DNA of 17,830 bases from NCBI GenBank assembly GCA_964619725.1, contig CAZUFC010000155.1, positions 1-17,830 of the forward strand, read 5' to 3'. The position numbers and the translations under genes are program-made. The notes under the pieces are model-generated. The model worked only from the letters and a program-made list of their open reading frames with translations. It was not told the DNA's origin and made no database searches. Within the stretch, counting starts at the first letter, position 1. The number at the start of each line of letters is the position of its first letter. This document shows positions 485 through 17,830 of the stretch, in pieces. The DNA is from an uncultured bacterium. GTDB taxonomy: Bacteria > CSSED10-310 > CAZUFC01.

Positions 485-3400
485 ATGCCTGGGGGAACGT
501 TATTAATTATGGGAAAATGTGATCTTTTCATCAGTTACAGTTCGCACGACCGTGATTGGGTGAAAACATTCGTGTCGCACCTGGAGCAATTGGGCGTCAG
601 GGTATGGTGGGACGTTAACAGAATTAAATACGGCGAGTCATTTATATCGGCTATTGATGCCGGATTAACCGAAAGCGGCCGGCTTATTCTCATCGTCAGT
701 CCGGCGAGTATGGCATCGCCCTGGGTGAGAAGGGAGTATACCGACGTCATGGTTCGATATCCCAACTTCGATCAGACCGGACGCATTATTCCCGTTATTA
801 TCAGCGAAGCATCCCGTCCACCCTTGTCCAGCGACTGTCAGTACATAAACCTTACTTACGCTGACTCTGAAAAATACCGCATGGGAATGCAAAAACTGAT
901 ATCCGGCTATTTTCCGCACTTGAAGGAGGGCTTGGCGACAGCTTCACTGCAACTGCCGTCACCTCCCAATTATGAAATAAACGGCAAATTGTGGACTCAG
1001 GCGGTAAACCTTTTCTCGGAATTGTCTGAAACCCGGTGGGATCGTAAACTTCTTTACGATAAGCTTCCCCCTGACATAAAACGGAAGAGCAAAGATATTC
1101 TGGAAAACAAAAACAAGGAAATATCGTCAACCGCCTTCCTTTTCTATTCGGAATGTTACAGGATGAAAAAACTAAAAAGCATTCTTGCCGTGCAGGATAT
1201 TGAGGAGGTATTGCGTTCGAGAAATCCTGATGAATATGAATCGCTGCTGAAGGAGCTGGACAAGTCAGAACCGCATCCGGCGATCAAATCGGAATGGATA
1301 AGGAAAATAGAGGAATATCTGAAGAGTCTGGAAATGCTCTGTAGAATCGATCTTTCGTCTCGTATTTTTCCCGAAGCCCATGATTTGCCGTTGCAGAAGG
1401 TCTACGTGGATTTATATACGGAGCCTTATGATCGAGCAAGGGATTTCGAGAGCGGCGCATGTCGTACGGATTATTTTCGTCATTTATCGTCAAAGGAACG
1501 CAGCGAATACCGGACAGGGACTCTGGAGAATTTCCTGAAAAGCGGAGAATCGCGGTGCTGGACGCTGCAGGGCGAGCCGGGCAGCGGTAAAACGACATTG
1601 CTGCTCGACATGTGTCGCAGGATGATAGGAGACGCTCGTGAAACCATTTCCGCAGGCGACCGGAAAGAAATACAGGCTAAGCTGCTGATCCCTGTTTATG
1701 TCCGCATAGGAGCGTGGAGGCGCCGCCCGGAGAGCATAATCGGATATTTGGACCGTGAATTCAGGGAAATGGACCTGGAGGGGACCGGCGAATTTTTGAA
1801 AACAGAATCTGATGCCGGCAGGGTCGTCTGGTTCTTCGACGGACTGGATGAAGTCGATCCGAAAGAAACCTTTGATGCCGCTGAAAAGATATCGATTCAC
1901 AGCCAGAGATTCAAACAGTGCAAAATAGTCATGACATCCCGCATTTTCGGATACGAGAAACCCCCGGACGCTGAAGACGCTGTTTTTAAAGAACTTAAAC
2001 TTTTGCCTCTTCGCCGTGAAGAAAGGAAGGAACTGCTGGAAGAGCTCCTGCAGGATAAACGTTCCGTTGAAGATGTTCTTGACGAAATAGACCGTCACAG
2101 CACGCTCAGAGAACTTTCCGGGAATCCCTTCTTCCTGACGATGATTGCAATCGCTGCATTACAACCAAAAATAGACGACGAATACAAACCTCTCCCCGTT
2201 CGACGTTCTGAATTGCTCGAAAGAGTCATCGACCGCCTTATGCTCGGCCTTCCGGGACTGAGAGAGAAGGGCCCCTTTCCCGATCATCAGCGGGTCTTGA
2301 GCTTCCTGAAGGAACTGGCGCTGGACCTGATGATGCATTATACTCCGCCCTACAGAGCGAATGAAGTGACGGAACGAATCATTTTCCTGGACAGCAAAGC
2401 GGACGGAGAATGCCGGCTGCTTAAAAACTATCAGAATGAAGCGGCAAAGTTTATAAGAAGTCTGGCCGCTCATACTTTCCTCATAATGTTCTTTGGAAAG
2501 TCCGAGAACGTATGCCATTTCCTGCACCGCTCCATACAGGAATACTTGGCGGCTTGCGCCCTTCACAGCCTGGAAGAAGAAAAATGGATGGAAATAGCCG
2601 AGTCGCTTCTTCCCGATAAAAGTGATGAAGCGACAGCCGCAAAGCTGGGACGCTGGGCAGAAATCTTCGGATACCTGGCCGGTATGGCGGACGACCCGAA
2701 CGCATGGCTGAAGAAACTGATGCATATAAACCAAGACCTGGGACTGAGAGCCCTTTCCACTACAGAAAACGTCACCGAAGAAACCCTGGAAACCATGCTC
2801 GACTGGGTGCAGGGCGGCTCAGAATGGGAAAAACGAAGAAAAATAATCGAATCGATACCCCTGCAGAAAAAGCTGGGATGCTCCAAATCAGCAGTCGATC
2901 TGCTGGATACGATAAGACGAAAAACAACTCACGGCGCAGACCTCTTTTTCATTTCCAGTACATTCGATCACATCGCAAATAGCGAAAACGTGGATGCTGA
3001 AGTGAAAAAATACGCCCTGGACCGTAAAAGAAATATTTTCGAAAGAGAACAGAAAGTCATAACGCCGCCGGATTTCTTGAAAACAATAGTCATTAAGGGC
3101 AAGGAACATGAATACTGGAGCAGAATACCGGCGGGAAATTTCCTGATGGGCAGCCCCAAAGACGAGGAGGGGCGATATGATGATGAACCGGAAAACCTGC
3201 CCGTCAGCCTTTCCGAATTCCACATGGGAAAAGTCCCTGTAACCAACCGTGATTATGAACTGTTCGATCCATCTCATAAAGACGACAGGGCTTTCGGCGA
3301 TAAAGAGACGGAAATGCATCCCGCGGTGAATGTGACCTGGTATGAGGCGATCATGTTCAGCCGGTGGGCGACTGAAATACTGAAAAGAAGGGGCGATCTG

Positions 3401-3835
3401 GACGACGGTGAAATAATAACGCTTCCGTCGGAGGCGCAATGGGAATACGCCTGCAGGGCCGGCAAGAAAACGATGTTCTGGTCGGGCGATAAGGAAGAAG
3501 ACCTGGATAGAGTCGGATGGTATGACGGAAATTCAGGCGGCAGGACGCATGCCGTGGGTGAAAAATCGGCGAATCCACGGGGGTTGTTCGACATGCACGG
3601 TAATGTATGGGAATGGTGCCTGGATGAATGGAGCGGACATTATAAAAGATCAGGAAATGACCAGATCGTCGGAAAAGTGGAAAACATTTCCGCCAGGCGG
3701 TCCATCCGGGGCGGCTCCTGGGGCAATGATCCGCGTGACTGCCGCTCCGCTTTCCGTAGCGGCAGGTATCCCGATGTCCGCTTCTTCAATCAGGGATTCC
3801 GCGTTGTCCGGGTCCGTCGCGGCCCCCAGGCTTGA
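485..3835 (+). CDS. TIR - helical linker - NACHT NTPase - FGE-sulfatase (CLec-fold) protein; NLR-like sensor and probable DGR target
   Basis: TIR motifs DLFISYS and SPWVRRE (catalytic-position Glu present); Walker A GEPGSGKT; Walker B FFDGLDE; NACHT GNPFFL and FLHRSIQEYLAA; FGE-sulfatase motifs FLMGS, LPSEAQWEYACRAG, GLFDMHGNVWEWC, RGGSW, GFRV. The true start may be ATG 509 (GGGGGA upstream). Confidence 0.93.
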   Translation: MPGGTLLIMGKCDLFISYSSHDRDWVKTFVSHLEQLGVRVWWDVNRIKYGESFISAIDAGLTESGRLILIVSPASMASPWVRREYTDVMVRYPNFDQTGRIIPVIISEASRPPLSSDCQYINLTYADSEKYRMGMQKLISGYFPHLKEGLATASLQLPSPPNYEINGKLWTQAVNLFSELSETRWDRKLLYDKLPPDIKRKSKDILENKNKEISSTAFLFYSECYRMKKLKSILAVQDIEEVLRSRNPDEYESLLKELDKSEPHPAIKSEWIRKIEEYLKSLEMLCRIDLSSRIFPEAHDLPLQKVYVDLYTEPYDRARDFESGACRTDYFRHLSSKERSEYRTGTLENFLKSGESRCWTLQGEPGSGKTTLLLDMCRRMIGDARETISAGDRKEIQAKLLIPVYVRIGAWRRRPESIIGYLDREFREMDLEGTGEFLKTESDAGRVVWFFDGLDEVDPKETFDAAEKISIHSQRFKQCKIVMTSRIFGYEKPPDAEDAVFKELKLLPLRREERKELLEELLQDKRSVEDVLDEIDRHSTLRELSGNPFFLTMIAIAALQPKIDDEYKPLPVRRSELLERVIDRLMLGLPGLREKGPFPDHQRVLSFLKELALDLMMHYTPPYRANEVTERIIFLDSKADGECRLLKNYQNEAAKFIRSLAAHTFLIMFFGKSENVCHFLHRSIQEYLAACALHSLEEEKWMEIAESLLPDKSDEATAAKLGRWAEIFGYLAGMADDPNAWLKKLMHINQDLGLRALSTTENVTEETLETMLDWVQGGSEWEKRRKIIESIPLQKKLGCSKSAVDLLDTIRRKTTHGADLFFISSTFDHIANSENVDAEVKKYALDRKRNIFEREQKVITPPDFLKTIVIKGKEHEYWSRIPAGNFLMGSPKDEEGRYDDEPENLPVSLSEFHMGKVPVTNRDYELFDPSHKDDRAFGDKETEMHPAVNVTWYEAIMFSRWATEILKRRGDLDDGEIITLPSEAQWEYACRAGKKTMFWSGDKEEDLDRVGWYDGNSGGRTHAVGEKSANPRGLFDMHGNVWEWCLDEWSGHYKRSGNDQIVGKVENISARRSIRGGSWGNDPRDCRSAFRSGRYPDVRFFNQGFRVVRVRRGPQA
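3695..3790 (+). other. DGR variable region VR1 (core), followed by an IMH-like invariant GC-rich tail (~3791-3830)
   Basis: Against VR2 there are 17 mismatches, 16 of them at codon positions 1-2, mostly in NNC/NNT codons, in the RGGSW...GFR segment of the CLec domain. Confidence 0.8.
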
Positions 3836-4032
3836 TGATTGGATATTGGTACGGACAGATGCGGACATTTACGGAGAAAAATCACCGGAAATATCCGCCA
3901 AAAGTATGGCTTGTACACGAAAAAAGGTGCGGACAAATGCGGCTATCGGACAACATTCGGCTAAATCTTGGCCGCAAATTTCCGCAAATGGCCGGATATG
4001 GCCGTATCTAGCCGTACCTGTCCAAAAGGAGG
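3836..4032. other. Conserved structured element downstream of VR1 (10-bp-periodic CGG/CCG imperfect inverted repeat)
   Basis: CGG at 3852/3862/3872 and CCG at 3972/3982/3992/4002/4012. About 11 mismatches to 8107-8303. Confidence 0.6.
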
Positions 4033-4368
4033 AATCGCTCCCTTTCAGCGTCATAGAGAACGCTGACACGGGCAGAAGATTGGATGTTCATAACGATTTT
4101 TTAACTGCTGGAACTGCCGGTTCATTCTTGCAGGTCCTCAACGATGTTGTTCGCTTTATTTTGTAAATCGGGACTTTTACGCAGAGGGAGCATTATCATC
4201 CCGGCATTTCCTGGACTGATCAAGCCATGCATGCAATTTTACGGCTTTAAACTTCCGTGGTGATGAAAATTCGGGCATTTTCGATAAAAACGGTAACTTC
4301 CGATTCATATTATCTTCCGGGAAGCAATATACGCAATGCTGAAATTACCGGTTACGGAGTATTGCCCG

Positions 4369-4662
4369 TCATTTGGACTGTTTCTTAGGTATTAATTCTA
4401 TCAATTTTCTCAGCGTTTTATTCACTGATTCAGAATCCGGAAAAAAAGGCCTGACGTCCGGGTCCAACATTACAGCGCCCTCTTCGAGTTTATAGTTTTT
4501 CACTACTAGATTACCCTCTTTTTTACGTATCTTTACGGAATGACCGGCTCTGTAATCCTTAAAATATTTACCCCTCTCGCCGCCTTTCAACTTTGAAAAA
4601 TCATATTCTTCCCTTATGTCACGATCTTTTGCTTTATTATTTTCTGAATTATCCTTCTTCAT
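4369..4662 (-). CDS. Putative antitoxin, BrnA-like partner of BrnT
   Basis: 97 aa with EYDFSKLKGGERGKY and LDPDV..FFPDSESVN..LR motifs. Overlaps the end of the brnT-like gene. Confidence 0.75.
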   Translation of the reverse strand: MKKDNSENNKAKDRDIREEYDFSKLKGGERGKYFKDYRAGHSVKIRKKEGNLVVKNYKLEEGAVMLDPDVRPFFPDSESVNKTLRKLIELIPKKQSK

Positions 4663-4933
4663 AATATTTCCGTTCCTTGCGCGTTGCTTTTCGAGAACTG
4701 ATGATACGGATATTTTTATTTCTTTCTGTATGGATAACGACCAAAATTCTGCCTTTTGCTGAAATTCCCAGGTTAATATATCTCTCCTCTATATCAGAAT
4801 GTTCTTCATCAGGAAACGTTAGTAAAAACGGATCGTTATACGCTGTTTTTGCCTCTTCGAAGCCGACTCCATGTCTTTTAATGTTTCTGTCATTTTTTTC
4901 CTCATCCCATTCAAATAATAATTTCATCATCAT
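4649..4933 (-). CDS. brnT: BrnT-family (DUF497) ribonuclease toxin
   Basis: FEWDEEKNDRNIKRHGVGFEEA...EERYINLG...IRIISSRKATRKERKYY is the canonical BrnT pattern. The start could be any of three tandem ATGs. Confidence 0.92.
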   Translation of the reverse strand: MMMKLLFEWDEEKNDRNIKRHGVGFEEAKTAYNDPFLLTFPDEEHSDIEERYINLGISAKGRILVVIHTERNKNIRIISSRKATRKERKYYEEG

Positions 4934-5022
4934 TTCCGCAGTAAATTCAGAGTTTCCTCAATCGAGCTTTCAGTCAACGATCCACTATATTAAAGAATCC
5001 TGTTTTTTTCAAGAGAGCGAAG

Positions 5023-5058
5023 CCCAGTGTTAAGCGACCCAAGGGAGCGTAACCCCGG
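5023..5058. repeat. REP-like element, copy of 20-55
   Basis: CCCAGTGTTAAGCG...GAGCGTAACCCCGG versus CCTGGGGTTAAGCG...GAGCGCAACCCCAGG. Confidence 0.55.
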
Positions 5059-5100
5059 TTTACGATGTTAAAAACACGAATCATGAGGATTTAACAGGAT

Positions 5101-5230
5101 ATGACCATGCCCCAATCAACAGCACAAATTTATCCTTATATGTTTTTCAACGGAACCGTTAACCGATTTTAAACGACATTGATATCCTTCTCATTAAATT
5201 AATATCCAGCCGGCATAGTCGACAATCAAC
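5101..5230 (+). pseudogene. Second degenerate IS200/IS605-family tnpA 5' fragment
   Basis: ATG CCC CAA TCA ACA GCA CAA ATT TAT = MPQSTAQIY, then frameshifted segments reading FST, PILNDIDI and AGIVDN. Aligns with 230-280. Confidence 0.55.
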
Positions 5231-5463
5231 CATTGATGAAAAATGCTTTTTTACAGTTCACAATTCGAGGTATTATCGCCTCAATGACCGACCTTTTATG
5301 GGCGTAGAGCGACGGCGGCGATGTTGCGACGATTTCTATTAATCCGTCCGATCATTCCAAAGAATCGGGTTCAGTATCGTAATCGCGCATTCAATAAAAC
5401 AAAATCGCTTCCTCCGCGTTTTTATTTCATAGGAAGGCTTGCGAACCCAATAATCTTAAGGAA

Positions 5464-8106
5464 TTGCTTTCCATAAAAAAGATCGAGGGAGTATTGAAAA
5501 AAAAGGAACCGGAAAAGCTGGACTCCCTGTTGAAGGAGCTGGAAAAATTCAAAAAGCCGAAACAATATAAAAGGGAGACGGCGAAAAAAATCGAGGCTTA
5601 TCTGAAACGCCTGGAAATGCAATGCGAATGCGATTTTGAATCCCGCCGTATTCCCGGCGCTGCGGAATTGACGTTGGAAGACCTTTACGTGGAGCTGCAG
5701 GCGGAGCGATTGCATCGTCCTAAAGAGCGTCCGGAGGAAGCCGTCCGTGACTCGTCATGTGTTCCCGATGAAGAGTTAAAAAATCGTGCTGGTTTTATAC
5801 GAGGAAAACTGGATGATTTTTTAACAAGCGAAATATCGCTTCGATGGACGCTTCAGGGCGAGCCTGGGAGCGGAAAAACCACATTATTGCTGAAAATATG
5901 CGACGATATGATTAAGGAAGCCCGCCGAATCATCCGTAAAGGCGATACGAAGGAGTTGCAGGAGCGTCTTGTCATTCCGGCATACGTTTCCATAGGAGCC
6001 TGGAGGCGAAGTCGAACGGAACTTCTTGAGTATCTGGATCAGGAATTCAGTGAACTGGGCGTTCGGGGAGCGGGCGAAATTCTCCGTACTGAAGCTGATG
6101 CCGGCAGGGTGGTCTGGTTGTTCGACGGGCTGGATGAAGTCGATCCTCAAGATACCCTTTCTGCGGTTAAACGCATAGCGATACACGTGAAAACATTCGA
6201 TCAATGCAAAGCGGTCATGACTTCCCGTATTTTCGGTTACAAAAAACCGCCCGGCGCCGGATTCAAAGAACTGAAACTTCTGCCCCTGGAAGGGGAAAAC
6301 CGCTTTAATCTACTAAAAAATCACCTGAAAGGCGAACGACCCGCGGAAGAAGTATTGGACGAAATAGACCGTAACCGAACCTTAAAGGAACTGGCCGGCA
6401 ATCCTTTCTTCCTGACCATGATTGCGGTCGCCGCATTGAAGAAAAAAAACAAGAAACAATACGAACCGTTGCCGGTAAGACGTTCGGAACTGCTTAAAAA
6501 GGTCATCGACGAACTTTTGTCAGGCGGACCGGGACCGAGACCCGAAGGCCCCTTCCCCAATCGCCCGCTGGCGCAGCGCTTGCTCGAAGACCTGGCGCTT
6601 GAACTGATGCGAAATTTTACGCCTCCTTATGAAGCCTTCGACGTCAATGAAAGGCTGATGATCATCGACAACCGGAAGCATGAAGACTCGAGGTTGCTGC
6701 CGGAAGCTTACAGGAACGATCCTTCGAGGTTCATCAGCAGCATAGCCAATCATAATTACCTGATGACGTTCCACGGGGAATCCCGGAAATACTGCCGCTT
6801 CCTCCACCGCTCCGTGCAGGAATACCTGGCGGCATGCTCATTGAAAAGAATGGACGAACCCACATGGAAAAAAATCGCTGAATCGCTGCTTCCTGAAAAA
6901 CGGGACAAGATAAGTTCGTCAAACCTGGGACGCTGGGCTGAAGTTTTCGGATACCTGGCCGGAGAGATGAAGAATCCGAATGAACTGCTGGAAAAACTGA
7001 TGAAAATCAACAGCGATCTGGGACTGCGCGCCCTTTCCACAGCAGACAATGTTACTGGGGATACCCTGGCGGCAATGATGGGCCTGGTCAAAGGCGGCGA
7101 CAAATGGCAAGCCAGGCGGGAAATCATCGAATCCATACCCGACCAATTGGGATACACGGAAACAGCGGTCGACCTTCTGGATAAGATACGTCGCGAAACA
7201 AAACCCACGAACGGCGCCGACCTGTTTTTCATTTCCGGGACTTATGACCTCATACGAAAGAAGACTGACGATAACGCTGTAAAACGTCACGCTTTGATTC
7301 ATAAGGAAAAAATATTCCATCATCTGGACGAACCGCAGCCGGATTTCTTGAAAACAATAGTCATTAAGGGCAAGGAACATGAATACTGGAGCAGAATACC
7401 GGCGGGAAATTTCCTGATGGGCAGCCCCAAAGACGAGGAGGGGCGATATGATGATGAACCGGAAAACCTGCCCGTCAGCCTTTCCGAATTCCACATGGGA
7501 AAAGTCCCTGTAACCAACCGTGATTATGAACTGTTCGATCCATCTCATAAAGACGACAGGGCTTTCGGCGATAAAGAGACGGAAATGCATCCCGCGGTGA
7601 ATGTGACCTGGTATGAGGCGATCATGTTCAGCCGGTGGGCGACTGAAATACTGAAAAGAAGGGGCGATCTGGACGACGGTGAAATAATAACGCTTCCGTC
7701 GGAGGCGCAATGGGAATACGCCTGCAGGGCCGGCAAGAAAACGATGTTCTGGTCGGGCGATAAGGAAGAAGACCTGGATAGAGTCGGATGGTATGACGGA
7801 AATTCAGGCGGCAGGACGCATGCCGTGGGTGAAAAATCGGCGAATCCACGGGGGTTGTTCGACATGCACGGTAATGTTGATGAATGGTGCCTGGATGAAT
7901 GGAGCGACAAATATAAAGAAACAGGAAATGATCCGGTAGTCGGCAATGTTCAAAACATTTCCGCCGGGCGGTCCATCCGGGGCGGCTCCTGGTTCAATGA
8001 TCCGCGTAACTGCCGCTCCGCTTTCCGTTTCGACTGGGATCCCGGGGACCGCAGCGACGATCAGGGATTCCGCGTTGTCCGGGTCCGTCGCGGCCCCCAG
8101 GTTTGA
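5464..8106 (+). CDS. NACHT - FGE-sulfatase (CLec) protein, paralog of 485-3835, 5'-truncated (no TIR); probable DGR target, possibly a pseudogene
   Basis: GEPGSGKT, LFDGLDE, GNPFFL, FLHRSVQEYLAA and an identical CLec scaffold. In-frame homology continues upstream of the TTG to ~5398, bounded by TAA at 5395. Confidence 0.88.
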   Translation: MLSIKKIEGVLKKKEPEKLDSLLKELEKFKKPKQYKRETAKKIEAYLKRLEMQCECDFESRRIPGAAELTLEDLYVELQAERLHRPKERPEEAVRDSSCVPDEELKNRAGFIRGKLDDFLTSEISLRWTLQGEPGSGKTTLLLKICDDMIKEARRIIRKGDTKELQERLVIPAYVSIGAWRRSRTELLEYLDQEFSELGVRGAGEILRTEADAGRVVWLFDGLDEVDPQDTLSAVKRIAIHVKTFDQCKAVMTSRIFGYKKPPGAGFKELKLLPLEGENRFNLLKNHLKGERPAEEVLDEIDRNRTLKELAGNPFFLTMIAVAALKKKNKKQYEPLPVRRSELLKKVIDELLSGGPGPRPEGPFPNRPLAQRLLEDLALELMRNFTPPYEAFDVNERLMIIDNRKHEDSRLLPEAYRNDPSRFISSIANHNYLMTFHGESRKYCRFLHRSVQEYLAACSLKRMDEPTWKKIAESLLPEKRDKISSSNLGRWAEVFGYLAGEMKNPNELLEKLMKINSDLGLRALSTADNVTGDTLAAMMGLVKGGDKWQARREIIESIPDQLGYTETAVDLLDKIRRETKPTNGADLFFISGTYDLIRKKTDDNAVKRHALIHKEKIFHHLDEPQPDFLKTIVIKGKEHEYWSRIPAGNFLMGSPKDEEGRYDDEPENLPVSLSEFHMGKVPVTNRDYELFDPSHKDDRAFGDKETEMHPAVNVTWYEAIMFSRWATEILKRRGDLDDGEIITLPSEAQWEYACRAGKKTMFWSGDKEEDLDRVGWYDGNSGGRTHAVGEKSANPRGLFDMHGNVDEWCLDEWSDKYKETGNDPVVGNVQNISAGRSIRGGSWFNDPRNCRSAFRFDWDPGDRSDDQGFRVVRVRRGPQV
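7966..8061 (+). other. DGR variable region VR2 (core), followed by an IMH-like tail (~8062-8101)
   Basis: Encodes GRSIRGGSWFNDPRNCRSAFRFDWDPGDRSDD versus RRSIRGGSWGNDPRDCRSAFRSGRYPDVRFFN in VR1. Confidence 0.8.
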
Positions 8107-8303
8107 TGATTGGATATTGGTACGGACAGATGCGGATATTTACGGAGAAAAATCACCGGAAATATCCGCAGAAAGTATGGCTTGTACACGCAAAAAGGTG
8201 CGGACAAGTGCGGCTATCGGACAACATTCGGCTAAATCCTGGCCGCAAACTTCCGCAAATGGCCGGATATGGCCGTATTCAGCCGTACCTGGCCGAAAGG
8301 AGG
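8107..8303. other. Conserved structured element downstream of VR2, ending in an AGGAGG ribosome-binding site
   Basis: Near-identical to 3836-4032. Confidence 0.6.
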
Positions 8304-8315
8304 AGACGCGATATA

Positions 8316-8648
8316 TTGTTGAGCGTTAAAGAAACCGCCGCAATGTTGGGTTTCAGCGAACGTCACGTCCGGTATCTGCTCTTGAATGAGTTCATACCGG
8401 GTCGTAAGCGGGGGAAATCCTGGGTTATACGGCGGTCTGATCTGGTTTCCGTTTTTCCCGAACTGCAGAGCGACGTTGAGAAAAAGATCGGCGAAATACG
8501 CGAGGTGACCGAAAAGGTCCTGGAAAAAACGGCGAAAAAAGCCGGCGGACGATCTTTCCGGGCGATACGCGATATGAGAGTGATACAGAAAGCGGCTGCG
8601 GCGTTTAATGAGATCAATGATCTTAAAAATTCAGGATTGTACATCTGA
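8316..8648 (+). CDS. Excisionase-like helix-turn-helix (HTH_17) protein, possibly C-terminally truncated
   Basis: AGGAGG at 8298-8303 precedes TTG 8316 (or 8319). LSVKETAAMLGFSERHVRYLL...IPGRKRGKSWVIRRSDL is a typical HTH_17 pattern. The ORF-track start at 8103 runs through the non-coding repeat. Confidence 0.75.
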   Translation: MLSVKETAAMLGFSERHVRYLLLNEFIPGRKRGKSWVIRRSDLVSVFPELQSDVEKKIGEIREVTEKVLEKTAKKAGGRSFRAIRDMRVIQKAAAAFNEINDLKNSGLYI

Positions 8649-8814
8649 AGGATCAAACGAGCCGGAGACTATGGATGACAATTCAGCAAAACAATTAACG
8701 AACGCAGAAACAATCAGGAAATCACGCCGTTGCTTCCCGCATTTAATAATTAAAATCTCCCCGATTGCGGCTTTTGAGGTTACAATTCGAAAGAATCGTC
8801 TGTCATTTTGTTTC

Positions 8815-8935
8815 GATTTCGATCACGATTGCTATACCGATGCCGATACCGATTGCGAATCCGACCCCGATACCGATACCGACACCGATACCGATTGCGA
8901 TACCGACCCCCGATACCGACACCGATACCGATTAC
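8815..8935 (+). repeat. Tandem array of about 20 degenerate hexamers (consensus GAYNCC/GATACC)
   Basis: GATTTC GATCAC GATTGC TATACC GATGCC GATACC ... GATTAC, with one 1-nt slip at ~8911. Confidence 0.9.
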
Positions 8936-9229
8936 TGAAAAAAACTGTCAAACGTTTTGAAAGAAGTGTAACCACTGTTTGATCAGTCCCTAAAAAAGTA
9001 AAATCCCGGCTTAATCAGTCGCAAAAAAATGTAACCTCGAAACACGGATATCTGATCATCTCCGGAATTTATAAAGCAAACAAAATGAATTCTGTTGTCC
9101 TTTCCGGCCCGGATTTCTCATATAAAAATTGATATCCGTCTCACCGGGCCGTCAATTTCGATCTGATCGGAAAACATCACGGTTGCGTTACAATATTATT
9201 GATTTTCGGTTAAAAATCCGAAAAAATAA

Positions 9230-9272: not shown

Positions 9273-9887
9273 ATGAAAAAGCCCACTAAAAGACAAAAGC
9301 AGATTCTCCGCTACATCAGGGATACATTGAATTCCGGGAGACCGGCGCCGACCGTCAGGGAGATCAGTGAACATTTCGGATTCGCCAGTACCCGAAGCGT
9401 GCGGGACCATCTTGCGGCTTTGGAACGTAAAGGCTGCATAATCAGGACTCCTCGTAAAGCGCGTGCCATAAGTCTTCCTGAAAACAGACAAATGGCTGAG
9501 GGGTTGAGTTATATCCCTGTATACGGCAGAATATCGGCTGGAATTCCAGTGAGTGAAACTCAGCATCAGGATAATGTGATAACTCTGGATATAGAGTCGC
9601 TGGGGGTCAAAAAAACGAAAAATATGTTTGCTTTGAAAGTGATGGGAGATTCCATGACGGGTCGCGGAATATTCGACGGCGACATAATCATTTTCGATCC
9701 CGAAAAAAAGCCGGAACATGGGGATGTAGTCGCTGCTCTTATCGACAAAGAATCAACTGTGAAGACTCTTGTAAAACGAGATGGGCGAATATTTCTGAAG
9801 CCGGAGAATATTCGTCATAAAGAGCTGATACCCGTAGACGAGCTTCGCATTCAAGGCACAGCCAGTTTAGCGATTCGTAAAATATGA
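9273..9887 (+). CDS. lexA: LexA transcriptional repressor
   Basis: wHTH motif PTVREISEHFGFAST..V..HL.ALERKG; Ala-Gly cleavage site (ISAGIP); catalytic Ser (GDSM) and Lys (TVKT). Confidence 0.93.
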   Translation: MKKPTKRQKQILRYIRDTLNSGRPAPTVREISEHFGFASTRSVRDHLAALERKGCIIRTPRKARAISLPENRQMAEGLSYIPVYGRISAGIPVSETQHQDNVITLDIESLGVKKTKNMFALKVMGDSMTGRGIFDGDIIIFDPEKKPEHGDVVAALIDKESTVKTLVKRDGRIFLKPENIRHKELIPVDELRIQGTASLAIRKI

Positions 9888-9899
9888 GAAAGGCCGGAC

Positions 9900-12800
9900 A
9901 TGCAAGTTGCACAGACTTATGATCCGAATGAAATAATAGAGAAGCACACGGAAACTCCTTCAGGGATGACCTTTTATAATTCGTTGGAGGCGATAACATC
10001 CGAGCCGCGACTTTATCAGTATTCTCATCTGTTGATAAAGGCCTGGAAAGAGATGCAATTATCAGGAATTCTATGCGTGGACGGAGCGCCGACTCTTTAT
10101 TTGCGGATGACCGACGGAAAAATTGATGCACAGAAGGCCCAGGAATATCAAAGGTTATTTTGGAACCAGGGAACGGCTTCTTTGCTGGTATTGGTCGATT
10201 CTCAAAACGTGAGAATTTTTTCGGGTATGTCTGTACCGGGCAAGCCGGGAGATGAATCGGCGACAGGAGCCGGTCTGGTCGAAAAAATTGACCAGGCTGA
10301 ATATGCAATCGGAATTCATGATTTTTATATCCGTCTGGGTACCGGCGCCTATTACAGGCAACATGAAAACAAATTTCGAAAGAAACAAACCGTAGACGTT
10401 TATCTGCTCGAAAATCTCAGAGCGCTAAGAAATTTATTCACTCGCAATAAAAACCGAATGCCTGTTGAAGTTGCACACGCTTTTTTAACCCGCCTGCTTT
10501 TTACCTGTTACCTTATAGATCGCGGTATAATTGATTTAACAGATTATGGATGCGATGCCCGTTCACGTTTGATCCACATGCTTGACATCGGAAATTTAGT
10601 TGAGTCGAAACAAATGCTGTATAAACTTTTTAACGACCTGAAAGATAAATTCAACGGCAGTATGTTTGATTGCTCATCAGAAGAAGAGTCAGCATTCACA
10701 CTGGAACATTTAGATGCGGTCGTCAGATTTCTGAAAGGCCATGAGATTTCTACAGGACAGCTTACGCTGGGGTTCTGGGCTTATGATTTCGAATGGATAC
10801 CCGTGGAAACAATAAGCGCCGTATATGAAGATTTCCTTAAAAGTGAAAATGAAACGGAAAAAAGAAGCAGCGGCGCTTATTACACTCCGAAATTCCTGGC
10901 TGAAACCGTTATCGGAGTCACTCTGGAAAAACAGACTTCATTGAAAAACAGGAAATTTTTTGATCCGGCATGCGGATCAGGCATATTTCTGGTTATTTTG
11001 TTCAACCGGTTGGCTTATGAATGGATGGACCGTCATCCCTCGGCGGATTACCAAACAAAAGCGGATGCTCTATTGGGGATACTCGAACATCAGATATTCG
11101 GCATGGACATTAATGAAACGGCATGCAGGATCGCCGGGTTCAGTCTTTATCTCGCTTTTCTGGACTGCTTCGATCCGCCTGACATCACAGAATACATGGA
11201 GCATACAGGAAAAAAATTGCCCAGGATTATTCAATACGATTCGCAAGACAAACCAAAGCCGGATTTTCCTGTGATCAGGAAAGCCGATTATCTTGAATTA
11301 TATTCTGAATACAACGCTAAATTCGACTATATCGTCGGTAATCCGCCCTGGTCAGGATCAGGAAAAGAAAGAACCGAACGGAAATTTACCGTTTTAATTC
11401 CGAAATCATTAACACATGAAGGAAAAGCATGTATTCTGCTGCCTGCCAGACTTTTTCTTAATAAAAAACTGGTCTCATTTCAAAAGGAGTGGCTGAAAAG
11501 GGTAACTCTTGAAAAAGTAATACAATTGGCTGATTTCCGTAAAATACTTTTTAAACATGCCAGGTGTCCGGGCATGATCGTCAGATTCACGGCAAAACCG
11601 CCGGCATCGGGTTCTATTCCGATTGAGTATGAAGTACCGAAAGTATCGAGAACAGACCCGCGGGAGGGCAAGATACAAGTCTTTCCGGCAGACAGAAAAT
11701 GCATTCGCCTGGGAGAACTGTTAGCTGCCGGCGAAGATGAAGAAATTCCGATGATATGGAAAAAGTATCTATGGGGCACTTCGAGAGATCAAAAATTCTT
11801 GCAGTTGTTGAGGGTTATGCCCGCTCTGGGGGAAATAGCCGGAAGCTCAAAAGTTGCTAAGAGATGGGTATGCGGCTCTGGATTGAAACCTTACAGGACA
11901 AGGATCAGCGGTAAACAAAAGCCTGGATGGTGGAAAGAATCACATTTGTTCGTGAAAAACGATTCAAATTTCCCGGGTCTATTCTTGCTTGAGTCGGATT
12001 GTGAAAAGATCGGCGACCGTTTTCAGAGCCTGGAGCGGACCAGGGAACCTAAAATTTTCCAGCCGCCGCTGATCATATTAAACACCGGATTCACAAAAAC
12101 AGCATTTTGTTCTTTTCCGGCGCTTTTTCAACACTCATTGTATTCAATAAGCGGTCCGGCTGAAGATGAGGAGCTATTGCTGTTTTTAACGGCTTATTTA
12201 CGATCGAAGTTAGCCAAGTATTTTTTATTTCATACAGCAGCCAATTGGGGGACGGAACGAACCAAGGTTCATCTTTTTGAATTGCTGAGGTTGCCGTTTC
12301 CTCTGCCGGGAAATGAATTCGTCCATCCGGATTCCAAGGATATCGTTAAAGTCGTCGTCCATAAAATGAGAGAATTCAAAACTTTTTTGTATGATCTCTA
12401 TGATCAGGCCGATAAGAATGACCATACTCCATTTTCATCAACAACCAGGAAAAAAATTAAAGAACTGCGAGAACAAAAAGAAAAGGTTCTGCAGTCGGAA
12501 CTGGATAATCTGATTAATAAGTATTTCAATTTAATCGACCAGGAGATCGTATTAATAGAAGATACGACGAATATTTTTATACCGAGTTCCACACCGGACC
12601 GTTCAGAAGCCGAAATAAAGACGCTGATTCCCATAATCGGCAACAATATTAAGTCATACGAGGACGGATTATCCGCTTATGCAGAAACGTTATTGAAAAC
12701 ACTTAATCAATGGGCGTTAGAGAGCGGATCAGAAATTCAAGTTCAGGCGACTGGATATGCTGACGGCAAAACCCTGGCCATGATCACTTTGGAACAGACT

Positions 12801-13067
12801 GCAACTCCGAAGACTTTTGAACAGAAAAATATGGAGGATAGGCTGAAGAGAGTATTGAAAAAATTACAGATGAGGGCCACGGAGCAGTCCGGCCGCTTGG
12901 ATTATTTAAGAGGTATCATCATATTCGAAGGACAGGTCATTCATATCGTAAAACCCCTGGAACTTGTGCATTGGACAAGGACAGCAGCCCTTAACGACGC
13001 CGCTGAAATATACGCAAGAACGGCAAGAGCAAGACGAGAAAAAGATCATGTACCGCACAGATGCTGA
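9900..13067 (+). CDS. Large N6-adenine DNA methyltransferase (type IIG / Eco57I-like architecture with TRD-like C-terminus)
   Basis: GAYYTP, motif I FDPACGSGIF, motif IV IVGNPPW, FNGSMFD, IPVETISAVYE. Confidence 0.88.
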   Translation: MQVAQTYDPNEIIEKHTETPSGMTFYNSLEAITSEPRLYQYSHLLIKAWKEMQLSGILCVDGAPTLYLRMTDGKIDAQKAQEYQRLFWNQGTASLLVLVDSQNVRIFSGMSVPGKPGDESATGAGLVEKIDQAEYAIGIHDFYIRLGTGAYYRQHENKFRKKQTVDVYLLENLRALRNLFTRNKNRMPVEVAHAFLTRLLFTCYLIDRGIIDLTDYGCDARSRLIHMLDIGNLVESKQMLYKLFNDLKDKFNGSMFDCSSEEESAFTLEHLDAVVRFLKGHEISTGQLTLGFWAYDFEWIPVETISAVYEDFLKSENETEKRSSGAYYTPKFLAETVIGVTLEKQTSLKNRKFFDPACGSGIFLVILFNRLAYEWMDRHPSADYQTKADALLGILEHQIFGMDINETACRIAGFSLYLAFLDCFDPPDITEYMEHTGKKLPRIIQYDSQDKPKPDFPVIRKADYLELYSEYNAKFDYIVGNPPWSGSGKERTERKFTVLIPKSLTHEGKACILLPARLFLNKKLVSFQKEWLKRVTLEKVIQLADFRKILFKHARCPGMIVRFTAKPPASGSIPIEYEVPKVSRTDPREGKIQVFPADRKCIRLGELLAAGEDEEIPMIWKKYLWGTSRDQKFLQLLRVMPALGEIAGSSKVAKRWVCGSGLKPYRTRISGKQKPGWWKESHLFVKNDSNFPGLFLLESDCEKIGDRFQSLERTREPKIFQPPLIILNTGFTKTAFCSFPALFQHSLYSISGPAEDEELLLFLTAYLRSKLAKYFLFHTAANWGTERTKVHLFELLRLPFPLPGNEFVHPDSKDIVKVVVHKMREFKTFLYDLYDQADKNDHTPFSSTTRKKIKELREQKEKVLQSELDNLINKYFNLIDQEIVLIEDTTNIFIPSSTPDRSEAEIKTLIPIIGNNIKSYEDGLSAYAETLLKTLNQWALESGSEIQVQATGYADGKTLAMITLEQTATPKTFEQKNMEDRLKRVLKKLQMRATEQSGRLDYLRGIIIFEGQVIHIVKPLELVHWTRTAALNDAAEIYARTARARREKDHVPHRC

Positions 13068-14023: not shown

Positions 14024-14484
14024 ATGTGGATTGGCAGAGAATTAAGCAGTATCTTGAAAGAAGTCGTTAAAACATTTCCTGCAGTCGTTTTAACGGGACC
14101 AAGGCAAACGGGTAAAACATCGATTCTTGAAAAGCATTTTCCCGATTACAGTTATGCGGCGCGTTGTGGGAAAACTACGTAGTCATTCAATGGTTGAAAT
14201 ATCGCGACTGGCACGATTCGTCCATCGGGTTGTGGTATTGGCGCGACCAGAGCGGCGCCGAAGTCGACCTGCTGCTGGAAAGAAACCAGAAACTCACACC
14301 CATCGAATGTAAATGTACGGAAAAACCAGGATCAAAAGCCTTGCATGGAATAAAAAAACTGAAGAAGTTTTACGGAGACGACACGATCAGGCAATCATTC
14401 ACAGCTTGTCCCATAGAACTGGGATACGAAATCGAACCGGGTCATAGCGTCGAATCAGGATGGAAAATATGGAATATAGAATAG
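14024..14484 (+). pseudogene. AAA_14 ATPase / DUF4143 gene with a large internal deletion and frameshift
   Basis: From 14024: MWIGRELSSILKEVVKTFPAVVLTGPRQTGKTSILEKHFPDYSY (Walker A). Joined out of frame at ~14156 to GALWENYV...YWRDQSGAEVDLLLE...PIECK (DUF4143 C-terminus). Confidence 0.85.
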
Positions 14485-17429: not shown

Positions 17430-17574
17430 ATTAACCTCCCATCCGCATTGATGAATTTTTAACTGTTGAATTGCCAAGGATTGGTTAAACCCTCTTCCCG
17501 CTTTTTTGCGGGCTCACCCATAACCATCGTTAAATATAGCATATGATTCAATGTGTGTCAATTTGCGGGATAAA

Positions 17575-17830
17575 TAGCGCCTGTCCACAAACTCGAATCT
17601 CGATTCAAAATTTAATGCTGGACAGCCACTTGGGTTTTTGATCCATAAACGGGCGAATTTATCTTAAAGCAATTAAGACAATGATTTGCGAGGTAGGGGT
17701 ATTGCTTATACGTTGACTGAGCAAATCCGCAGCCTGACGCAGTATTAGGGAAAATTCGCCGTTTATGGACAAAAACTAGATAGTGTCTGTCCACAAACTC
17801 GAATCTCGATTCAAAATTTAATGCTGGACA
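17575..17830. mobile_element. Tandem MITE/REP-like non-autonomous elements; second copy cut by the window edge
   Basis: Exact 44-bp direct repeat at 17581-17624 and 17787-17830. Terminal inverted repeats TAG-N4-TGTCCACAAAC ... GTTTATGGACA-N4-CTA. Internal ~25-bp inverted repeat at 17634-17660 / 17752-17776. Confidence 0.6.

Follow-up and report, generated by a model that had tools for sequence, protein, structure and literature searches.

A bacterial NLR-like protein with a predicted Death-like domain and a hypervariable lectin tip of the diversity-generating retroelement type

How does a receptor gene come to carry a hypervariable ligand-binding tip on a contig where the machinery that writes such tips is not found? 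The question is raised by contig C155 (CAZUFC010000155.1; 17,830 nt, the whole of which was analysed and is called the window here) from the assembly of an uncultured bacterium (GCA_964619725.1; 9.17 Mb in 344 contigs, 90.9% complete, genome GC 47%). On its forward strand, an open reading frame (ORF) at 485-3835 is open for 1116 codons, and an initial annotation had read its product, P0001, as a TIR-NACHT-C-type lectin (CLec) receptor diversified by a diversity-generating retroelement (DGR). The ORF is real, with Pfam matches to TIR_2, FGE-sulfatase, and the NACHT clan. The gene caller and the orthologues place the start at M9 (nt 509), and the true start is probably the ATG at 509, giving 1108 aa.

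We consider it likely that P0001 is a single-chain NLR-like receptor of TIR, Death-like, NACHT, helical, and FGE-type CLec parts, whose last ~60 residues form a hypervariable patch of the DGR-written type, and whose specificities were either frozen after loss of the DGR core, towards which we lean, or are served in trans.

The lectin domain occupies aa 878-1109 (3116-3811, forward strand; Pfam FGE-sulfatase, PF03781, E 3.9e-43), and its best solved relative is TvpA, variable protein 1 of Treponema denticola (2Y3C, E 7.9e-21). Downstream on the same strand, the window encodes an 880-aa NACHT-FGE paralogue, P0002 (ORF 5464-8106, region 5395-8106), and the two copies differ in a sharply bounded manner. 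The lectin scaffold (3067-3606, forward strand) is 100% identical to 7338-7877 of the paralogue, with 0 of 540 nt differing, versus 36 of the adjoining 182 nt (Fisher p 1.7e-23), which form variable region (VR) VR1 (3607-3788, forward strand, aa 1041-1102) and VR2 (7878-8059, forward strand). The stretch is contained in four microbial-mat runs of one study, and in run X1 the shared scaffold unitig stands at double depth (14.9, against 6.4 and 8.1 for the VR unitigs), so that the scaffold identity is present in the reads.

P0001 and P0002 arose by an old duplication and have both been under purifying selection (dN/dS 0.27, dS 1.37, 616 codons), and their divergence is a mosaic: about 28% of nucleotides in the NACHT region, 0% in the scaffold, 20% in the VR, and 5% in the 3' flank. 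Such a history would suit an explanation without any DGR, in which the patch is an island of ordinary divergence between gene-conversion tracts, or the product of positive selection alone. Base composition offers this explanation further room. One copy has an A at 24 of the 36 VR difference sites, much like the NACHT blocks (77 of 123), and thus this measure does not discriminate; the changes between VR1 and VR2 comprise 11 transitions and 25 transversions, a ratio not significantly different from that of the NACHT region (p 0.17). There is also no template repeat (TR) at hand against which the adenine rule could be checked.

Other features of the patch are hard to reconcile with ordinary divergence. 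Synonymous divergence in the VR is 0.16, a quarter of the old paralogue level of 0.63, and non-synonymous divergence is similar, which means that the patch is not simply an unconverted island. The ratio of synonymous to non-synonymous changes is about 6:30 in the VR, where the NACHT region has 262:412 (p 0.0075), and all but one of the 16 changes in the second half of the VR affect the first or second codon position (8:7:1 over the three positions; p 0.0013). The 45-aa C-terminal VR of TvpA aligns to this second half of VR1, so that the island lies where a solved relative has its VR. In an independent cluster of orthologues (P0009, P0048, and P0049), the 16 residues that vary are confined to aa 1065-1096, with no difference elsewhere in 1,092 shared residues, and 11 of the 16 variable columns coincide with columns that differ between P0001 and P0002.

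Hairpins stand after both VRs, and a hairpin 3' of the VR is a known feature of DGR targets, although defining an IMH would take a TR. The one after VR1 (3861-3898, forward strand) begins 25 nt past the stop codon, with a DNA fold of -11.5 kcal/mol (z -4.4; 0 of 200 shuffles as stable), and the one after VR2 (8131-8170, forward strand) has 18-nt arms, a 4-nt loop, and a fold of -16.1 kcal/mol (z -7.2). With these observations set against it, an origin in which no DGR ever took part appears very improbable. The C terminus of P0001 carries a localised hypervariation signature of the DGR type, and the CLec domain with a VR described initially is borne out by the contrast between patch and scaffold and by the same columns varying in the orthologue cluster. 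Variable residues in solved DGR lectins are reported to be solvent-exposed in the accessible part of PMC6328139; by homology to TvpA, the 21 variable residues of P0001 would be surface-exposed as well. The whole-protein model has a low-confidence loop inside the VR (aa 1055-1063).

The initial annotation had further proposed that specificity is re-rolled by the DGR. This was not supported, as no cognate TR or reverse transcriptase (RT) was found in the window, the assembly, or the contigs of the four runs. In the window, neither a DGR RT, nor Avd, nor a third repeat copy was detected (15 ORFs scanned; repeat comparison). In the 9.17-Mb assembly, blastn with both VRs at word size 7 returned no cognate TR, only VR1 and VR2 themselves plus FGE-motif matches of at most 63 nt, and an RVT_1 search gave 12 matches on 11 other contigs and none on C155. 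In the contigs of the four runs, no A-rich third variant at ≥80% likeness was present, and in X1, VR1 and VR2 together account exactly for the depth over the VR (6.4 + 8.1 = 14.5). Contigs are better at showing that a sequence is there than that it is missing, but a TR would belong to this same genome, in single copy.

The assembly carries at least three other DGRs, some with VRs on other contigs: one has a TR on C280 with VRs on C280, C324, and C25; one, on C26, has a TR with two VRs; and one, on C9, is a canonical cassette of a Metallophos-NACHT-FGE target, TR, RT, and second target. A possible TR on C78 has a possible VR on C53. None of these is cognate to the window VRs: the TRs paired near RTs (C280, C9, C26, and possibly C78) do not resemble them. 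Together with the indifferent adenine share and transition ratio described above, the results of these searches weigh against the reading we favour. So do the 30 adenines identical in VR1 and VR2, which exceed the expectation from simple saturating mutagenesis, and, for the receptor as a whole, the result of PADLOC 2.0.0, in which P0001 matched no family of the NACHT or Avs type and gave only TIR-region matches and weak P-loop matches.

One way to account for a missing core is that an active cognate Avd-TR-RT cassette sits elsewhere in the organism or on a mobile element, outside the bin and the contig sets, and rewrites VR1 and VR2 in trans. Other TRs in the genome do pair with VRs on other contigs (C280 with C324 and C25; possibly C78 with C53), the assembly is incomplete and fragmented (90.9%, 344 contigs), and according to Kaur et al. 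(eLife 2021, PMC8195603), FGS systems may have their DGR at another place in the genome. Moreover, with 36 differences in the VR and none in the 540-nt scaffold, the VR must have changed more recently than any point mutation arose in the scaffold. These points are countered by the failure to find a third copy in the contigs of the four runs, by the X1 depth, which VR1 and VR2 account for, and by the lack of a match in the assembly or, for an exact match to the invariant VR core, in viral contigs. In addition, VR1 is the same in runs X1 and X2 where covered. One X2 contig that joins VR2-type sequence to the copy-1 flank was set aside as a possible assembly chimera (depth 4, joined via a 32-nt shared stretch). 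We rate rewriting in trans clearly below even odds.

Since two targets are present on the contig without Avd, TR, or RT, the VRs are either frozen products of a lost core or are served by an unsampled DGR in trans, and of these two origins we lean towards loss. In the C9 cassette and in locus L102 of a Methylococcaceae metagenome-assembled genome, Avd-TR-RT lies between the targets; in C155, a BrnT segment lies there instead. L102 (599-10261) has bAvd-RT-TR with the TR at 5632-5755 and three VRs, in nSTAND1-FGE, TIR-FGE, and unassigned-FGE proteins, and SIR2-TIR and N6_N4 methylase genes are interleaved. In metagenome and genome-collection scans with lectin-domain patterns, 12 of 154 loci had TR/VR-like pairs by a crude detector, some of them unconvincing; these scans returned mostly unrelated FGE proteins and no whole-protein orthologue of P0001.

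The segment between the paralogues (4034-5394, 1.36 kb) is unique and low in GC (39.8%, against about 50% in the flanking genes and 47% in the genome). P0002 is cut off at its edge: homology to P0001 starts at about aa 210, beside an in-frame TAA (5395-5397), and the first possible start is the TTG at 5464, so that P0002 has no TIR domain and just the second half of the Death-like domain. We hypothesize that the DGR core between the two targets was replaced by this low-GC segment. The missing core raises the question whether such receptors persist and function after loss of their diversifier.

The segment itself encodes a BrnT-family ribonuclease toxin (4649-4933, reverse strand; Pfam E 7e-30), which overlaps a 97-aa ORF (4369-4662, reverse strand) that has no family match and is a candidate antitoxin. 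The 3' flank of copy 1 (3836-4033, forward strand) is about 94% identical to 8107-8304 of copy 2, and in the comparison up to 4033, 12 of 245 nt differ between the copies (9 transitions, 3 transversions). Both ~200-nt flanks are rich in short repeats (CGGACAA twice, GGCCG motifs, a 16-nt inverted repeat), and both end in AAAGGAGGA, a ribosome-binding-like site. Only the copy-2 flank precedes a gene, an HTH_17 protein in ORF 8103-8648. The flanks match no Rfam family, and none was found in the window; they may be an operator region.

The tripartite layout of effector, NTPase, and sensor in one polypeptide, as first annotated, holds up, since TIR, NACHT-type STAND, and FGE-type CLec domains were all found. 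The TIR domain covers aa 15-129 (527-871, forward strand; Pfam TIR_2 E 5.3e-25, 88.7 bits against a cut-off of 28) and aligns to the AbTIR, TcpB, and PdTIR chains. The glutamate singled out by the annotation in SPWVRRE (aa 78-84) is E84 (codon 734-736); it is conserved in all five aligned TIR-bearing relatives and, in the alignment to AbTIR, a NAD+ hydrolase (chains 7uwg/8g83, E 4e-10), occupies the position of the WTNYEL Glu. This Glu of AbTIR is presumably the catalytic E208, and E84 is of the catalytic type. The likeness to these bacterial TIR NADases consists in the TIR_2 domain and the Glu in the W-x-x-x-E position. Unlike AbTIR, TcpB, and PdTIR, which are free-standing or coiled-coil proteins, the TIR domain of P0001 is tethered to an NTPase switch, and its NADase activity is putative.

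The NACHT-type STAND NTPase core lies at aa 360-524 (1562-2056, forward strand). The NACHT profile scores 24.1 bits there, slightly below the Pfam cut-off of 26.7, and the NACHT-clan family NPHP3_N scores 31.8 bits on P0001 (cut-off 24.8). Walker A (GEPGSGKTT, aa 363-371, nt 1571-1597) and Walker B (DGLDE, aa 452-456, nt 1838-1852, within VVWFFDGLDE at aa 447-456) are intact and invariant in an alignment of 27 relatives, and the orthologues P0008 and P0010 have PF05729 among their precomputed matches. Between the NACHT core and the lectin domain, a helical/winged-helix region (aa 525-877; 2057-3115, forward strand) consists mostly of helices in the whole-protein model (pLDDT about 80-93 here, mean 81.7 over the protein), with a weak Pfam match to NLRC4_HD2 (E 0.0056). 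The NCBIfam model EruA also matches P0001 weakly (37 bits against a cut-off of 1000).

The ~100 residues between TIR and NACHT had been left unassigned, with the guess that they form an effector-associated adaptor. By sequence they are indeed unassigned: chance-level rows aside, Pfam gives no family for residues 130-300 at thresholds up to E≤10, and no related domain came up with phmmer among 1.84 billion representative proteins. Two weak phmmer matches besides self were checked by Pfam and discarded as irrelevant. In an AlphaFold2 model of aa 126-316 from a 6-row alignment, aa 166-265 (980-1279, forward strand) form a bundle of short helices at pLDDT 84-95, and the whole-protein model agrees (pLDDT 79-92). 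Foldseek with this model against the PDB returned nothing at E≤0.001; its best rows, above that threshold, are Death-fold domains (IRAK4 DD, E 0.35). An independent structure search (VIA, 48,161 solved chains) gave a uniform list in which at least 44 of the best 50 matches are DED, DD, PYD, or CARD domains (Z 6.9-4.3, 80-88 residues covered). They include MC159 vFLIP (Z 6.9), the FADD DED (Z 6.8; 84 of 87 residues, rmsd 3.0), the AIM2 PYD (Z 6.3), and the MyD88 DD (Z 6.2). As Z below 8 is middling for helical bundles, the weight rests on the uniformity of the match list.

On the predicted structure, we read aa 166-265 as a Death-like adaptor that cannot be assigned by sequence to a named family. 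This fits the earlier guess, as does a weak lead from the ESM Atlas, where neighbours of the segment carry EAD8, bDLD1, EAD1, and EAD7 (score 0.76). The segment is common to the three full orthologues P0008-P0010 (40-42% identity) and to P0011, which begins with an Mrr-type nuclease and whose TIR is degenerate; P0012 is a TIR-NACHT-FGE protein without it. A single-sequence query, which distant copies could escape, found no other copy in the genome besides the truncated paralogue. Complex prediction with three copies of the domain scored 0.01, which is not evidence either way. At the level of predicted structure, a Death-fold domain between TIR and NACHT recalls the logic of animal MyD88 and NLR proteins.

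We read P0001 as a bacterial relative of the animal and plant NLR immune receptors, and we infer its function by analogy with characterised bacterial NACHT and Avs proteins and TIR NADases. A ligand would bind the variable lectin face and release the NTPase, and NTP-dependent oligomerisation through NACHT would follow. The oligomer would bring the TIR domains together, and the clustered TIRs, if they behave like known TIR NADases, would cleave NAD+ or make a signal, so that the infected cell is arrested. The Death-like domain may stabilise the oligomer by homotypic contacts or recruit partners. The bNACHT and Avs anti-phage proteins share the effector-STAND-sensor layout, and ligand-induced oligomerisation is expected of them too. 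Their characterised members, however, have germline-fixed sensors (TPR or other repeats), in contrast to the CLec with a VR in P0001. TvpA is similar in its FGE-subtype CLec and in the position of the VR at the extreme C terminus, but it is a single-domain lipoprotein with a VR of 45 aa, whereas the lectin of P0001 is the sensor end of a 1116-aa protein of cytoplasmic type with a VR of 62 aa.

Rather than an anti-phage sensor, P0001 could be a kin- or self-recognition or signalling receptor of a mat-dwelling, possibly multicellular, bacterium. The recovery of the stretch from microbial mats would suit this role, and so would the non-defence partners of other FGE-tipped proteins of this genome, among them three Ser/Thr kinases, two collagen-repeat proteins, and one TIG protein. 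Regulatory tuning is proposed in the abstract of Vallota-Eastman et al. (2020, PMC7517822), and kin recognition is named as a selective pressure by Doré et al. (PNAS 2024, PMC10907252). What makes such a role unlikely in our view is that a TIR domain with a catalytic-type Glu joined to NACHT is a cell-death or defence architecture, and that the neighbours are of defence type, namely the BrnT toxin and a type IIG restriction-methylase.

The large FGE/CLec-tipped repertoire of the genome comprises Ser/Thr kinase-FGE (three), collagen-repeat-FGE (two), TIG-FGE, tandem-FGE (two), and Metallophos-NACHT-FGE proteins, on contigs C15, C127, C228, C185, C141, C153, C161, C179, and C9.

Related receptors have been described before. 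In the accessible text of Kaur et al. (PMC8195603), STAND-FGS proteins carry N-terminal TIR, EADs, or bDLD3, a bDLD3-STAND-FGS gene is paired with a TIR-bDLD3 gene, and multiple copies occur per genome with DGR components nearby or elsewhere. P0001 resembles these in its NACHT-clade NTPase with a C-terminal FGS, in the TIR effector, in the Death-like adaptor, and in the presence of at least two copies per genome. The bDLD3 case in that text consists of two genes, whereas P0001 has TIR, one Death-like domain, and NTPase in one chain; also, the Death-like domain of P0001 matches no Pfam bDLD/EAD model, and no second genome copy was found.

The portions of Doré et al. (PMC10907252) available to us report DGR loci in which two targets are NACHT/nSTAND-CLec proteins, in some cases with TIR, and propose antigen sensing in multicellular bacteria, stated there as untested. 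Their clade 5D loci, as described in these portions, contain RT, Avd, and TR, whereas C155 has two targets, one of them N-terminally truncated, and no DGR core was found. TIR- or adaptor-STAND-FGE targets of DGRs are thus already published (Kaur 2021 and Doré 2024), and P0001 adds another. The local twists of its locus are the cis-fusion of effector, Death-like domain, and NTPase, the truncated second target on an identical scaffold, and the lack of a detectable DGR core.

More speculatively, and with little confidence on our part, P0001 could be the cis-fused form of a two-gene TIR-Death-like/Death-like-STAND-lectin system, and could form a sensor/helper-like pair with the TIR-less and adaptor-less paralogue that carries the second specificity. 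Gene conversion would have kept the scaffolds identical, and the replacement of the DGR core by the BrnT segment would have frozen two specificities into the germline; the locus would then show, in nature, how an adaptive-like receptor becomes an innate one.

At present, the best candidates for antigen sensing of an adaptive-like kind in bacteria are the NLR-like proteins whose lectin tips are written by DGRs. To our knowledge, none has yet been tested at the bench. P0001 is compact, with effector, adaptor, switch, and sensor in one chain, and because a second VR stands on an identical scaffold, a VR swap would be a clean experiment. Judged by sequence, the family is rare: 5.8 billion clusters yielded three orthologues, which share 40-42% identity with P0001; no full-length match to P0001 occurred in 40 relatives or in 13 other genomes of the phylum.

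Downstream of the two targets, the window holds a full-length LexA gene (9273-9887, forward strand; NCBIfam lexA E 3e-49, above cut-off), and a type IIG restriction-methylase-like gene starts 12 nt past it (9900-13067, forward strand, 1055 aa; PADLOC REase_MTase_IIG E 5.8e-64). The two are arranged like an operon, which could place the restriction enzyme under SOS-type control. Inside ORF 8608-8982, imperfect 6-nt units (CCGATA-like) at 8811-8906 would encode an acidic, Asp/Thr-rich stretch of low complexity. ORF 14164-14484 (forward strand) matches only the last 51 positions of DUF4143 and looks like a fragment of an AAA+-associated gene. Near the end of the contig, a repeat of ~55 nt occurs at 17571-17624 and 17777-17830; it is dispersed in the genome, often at contig ends (C78, C298, C47, and C14), and probably represents a small mobile element, or a REP-like one, at which the assembly breaks.

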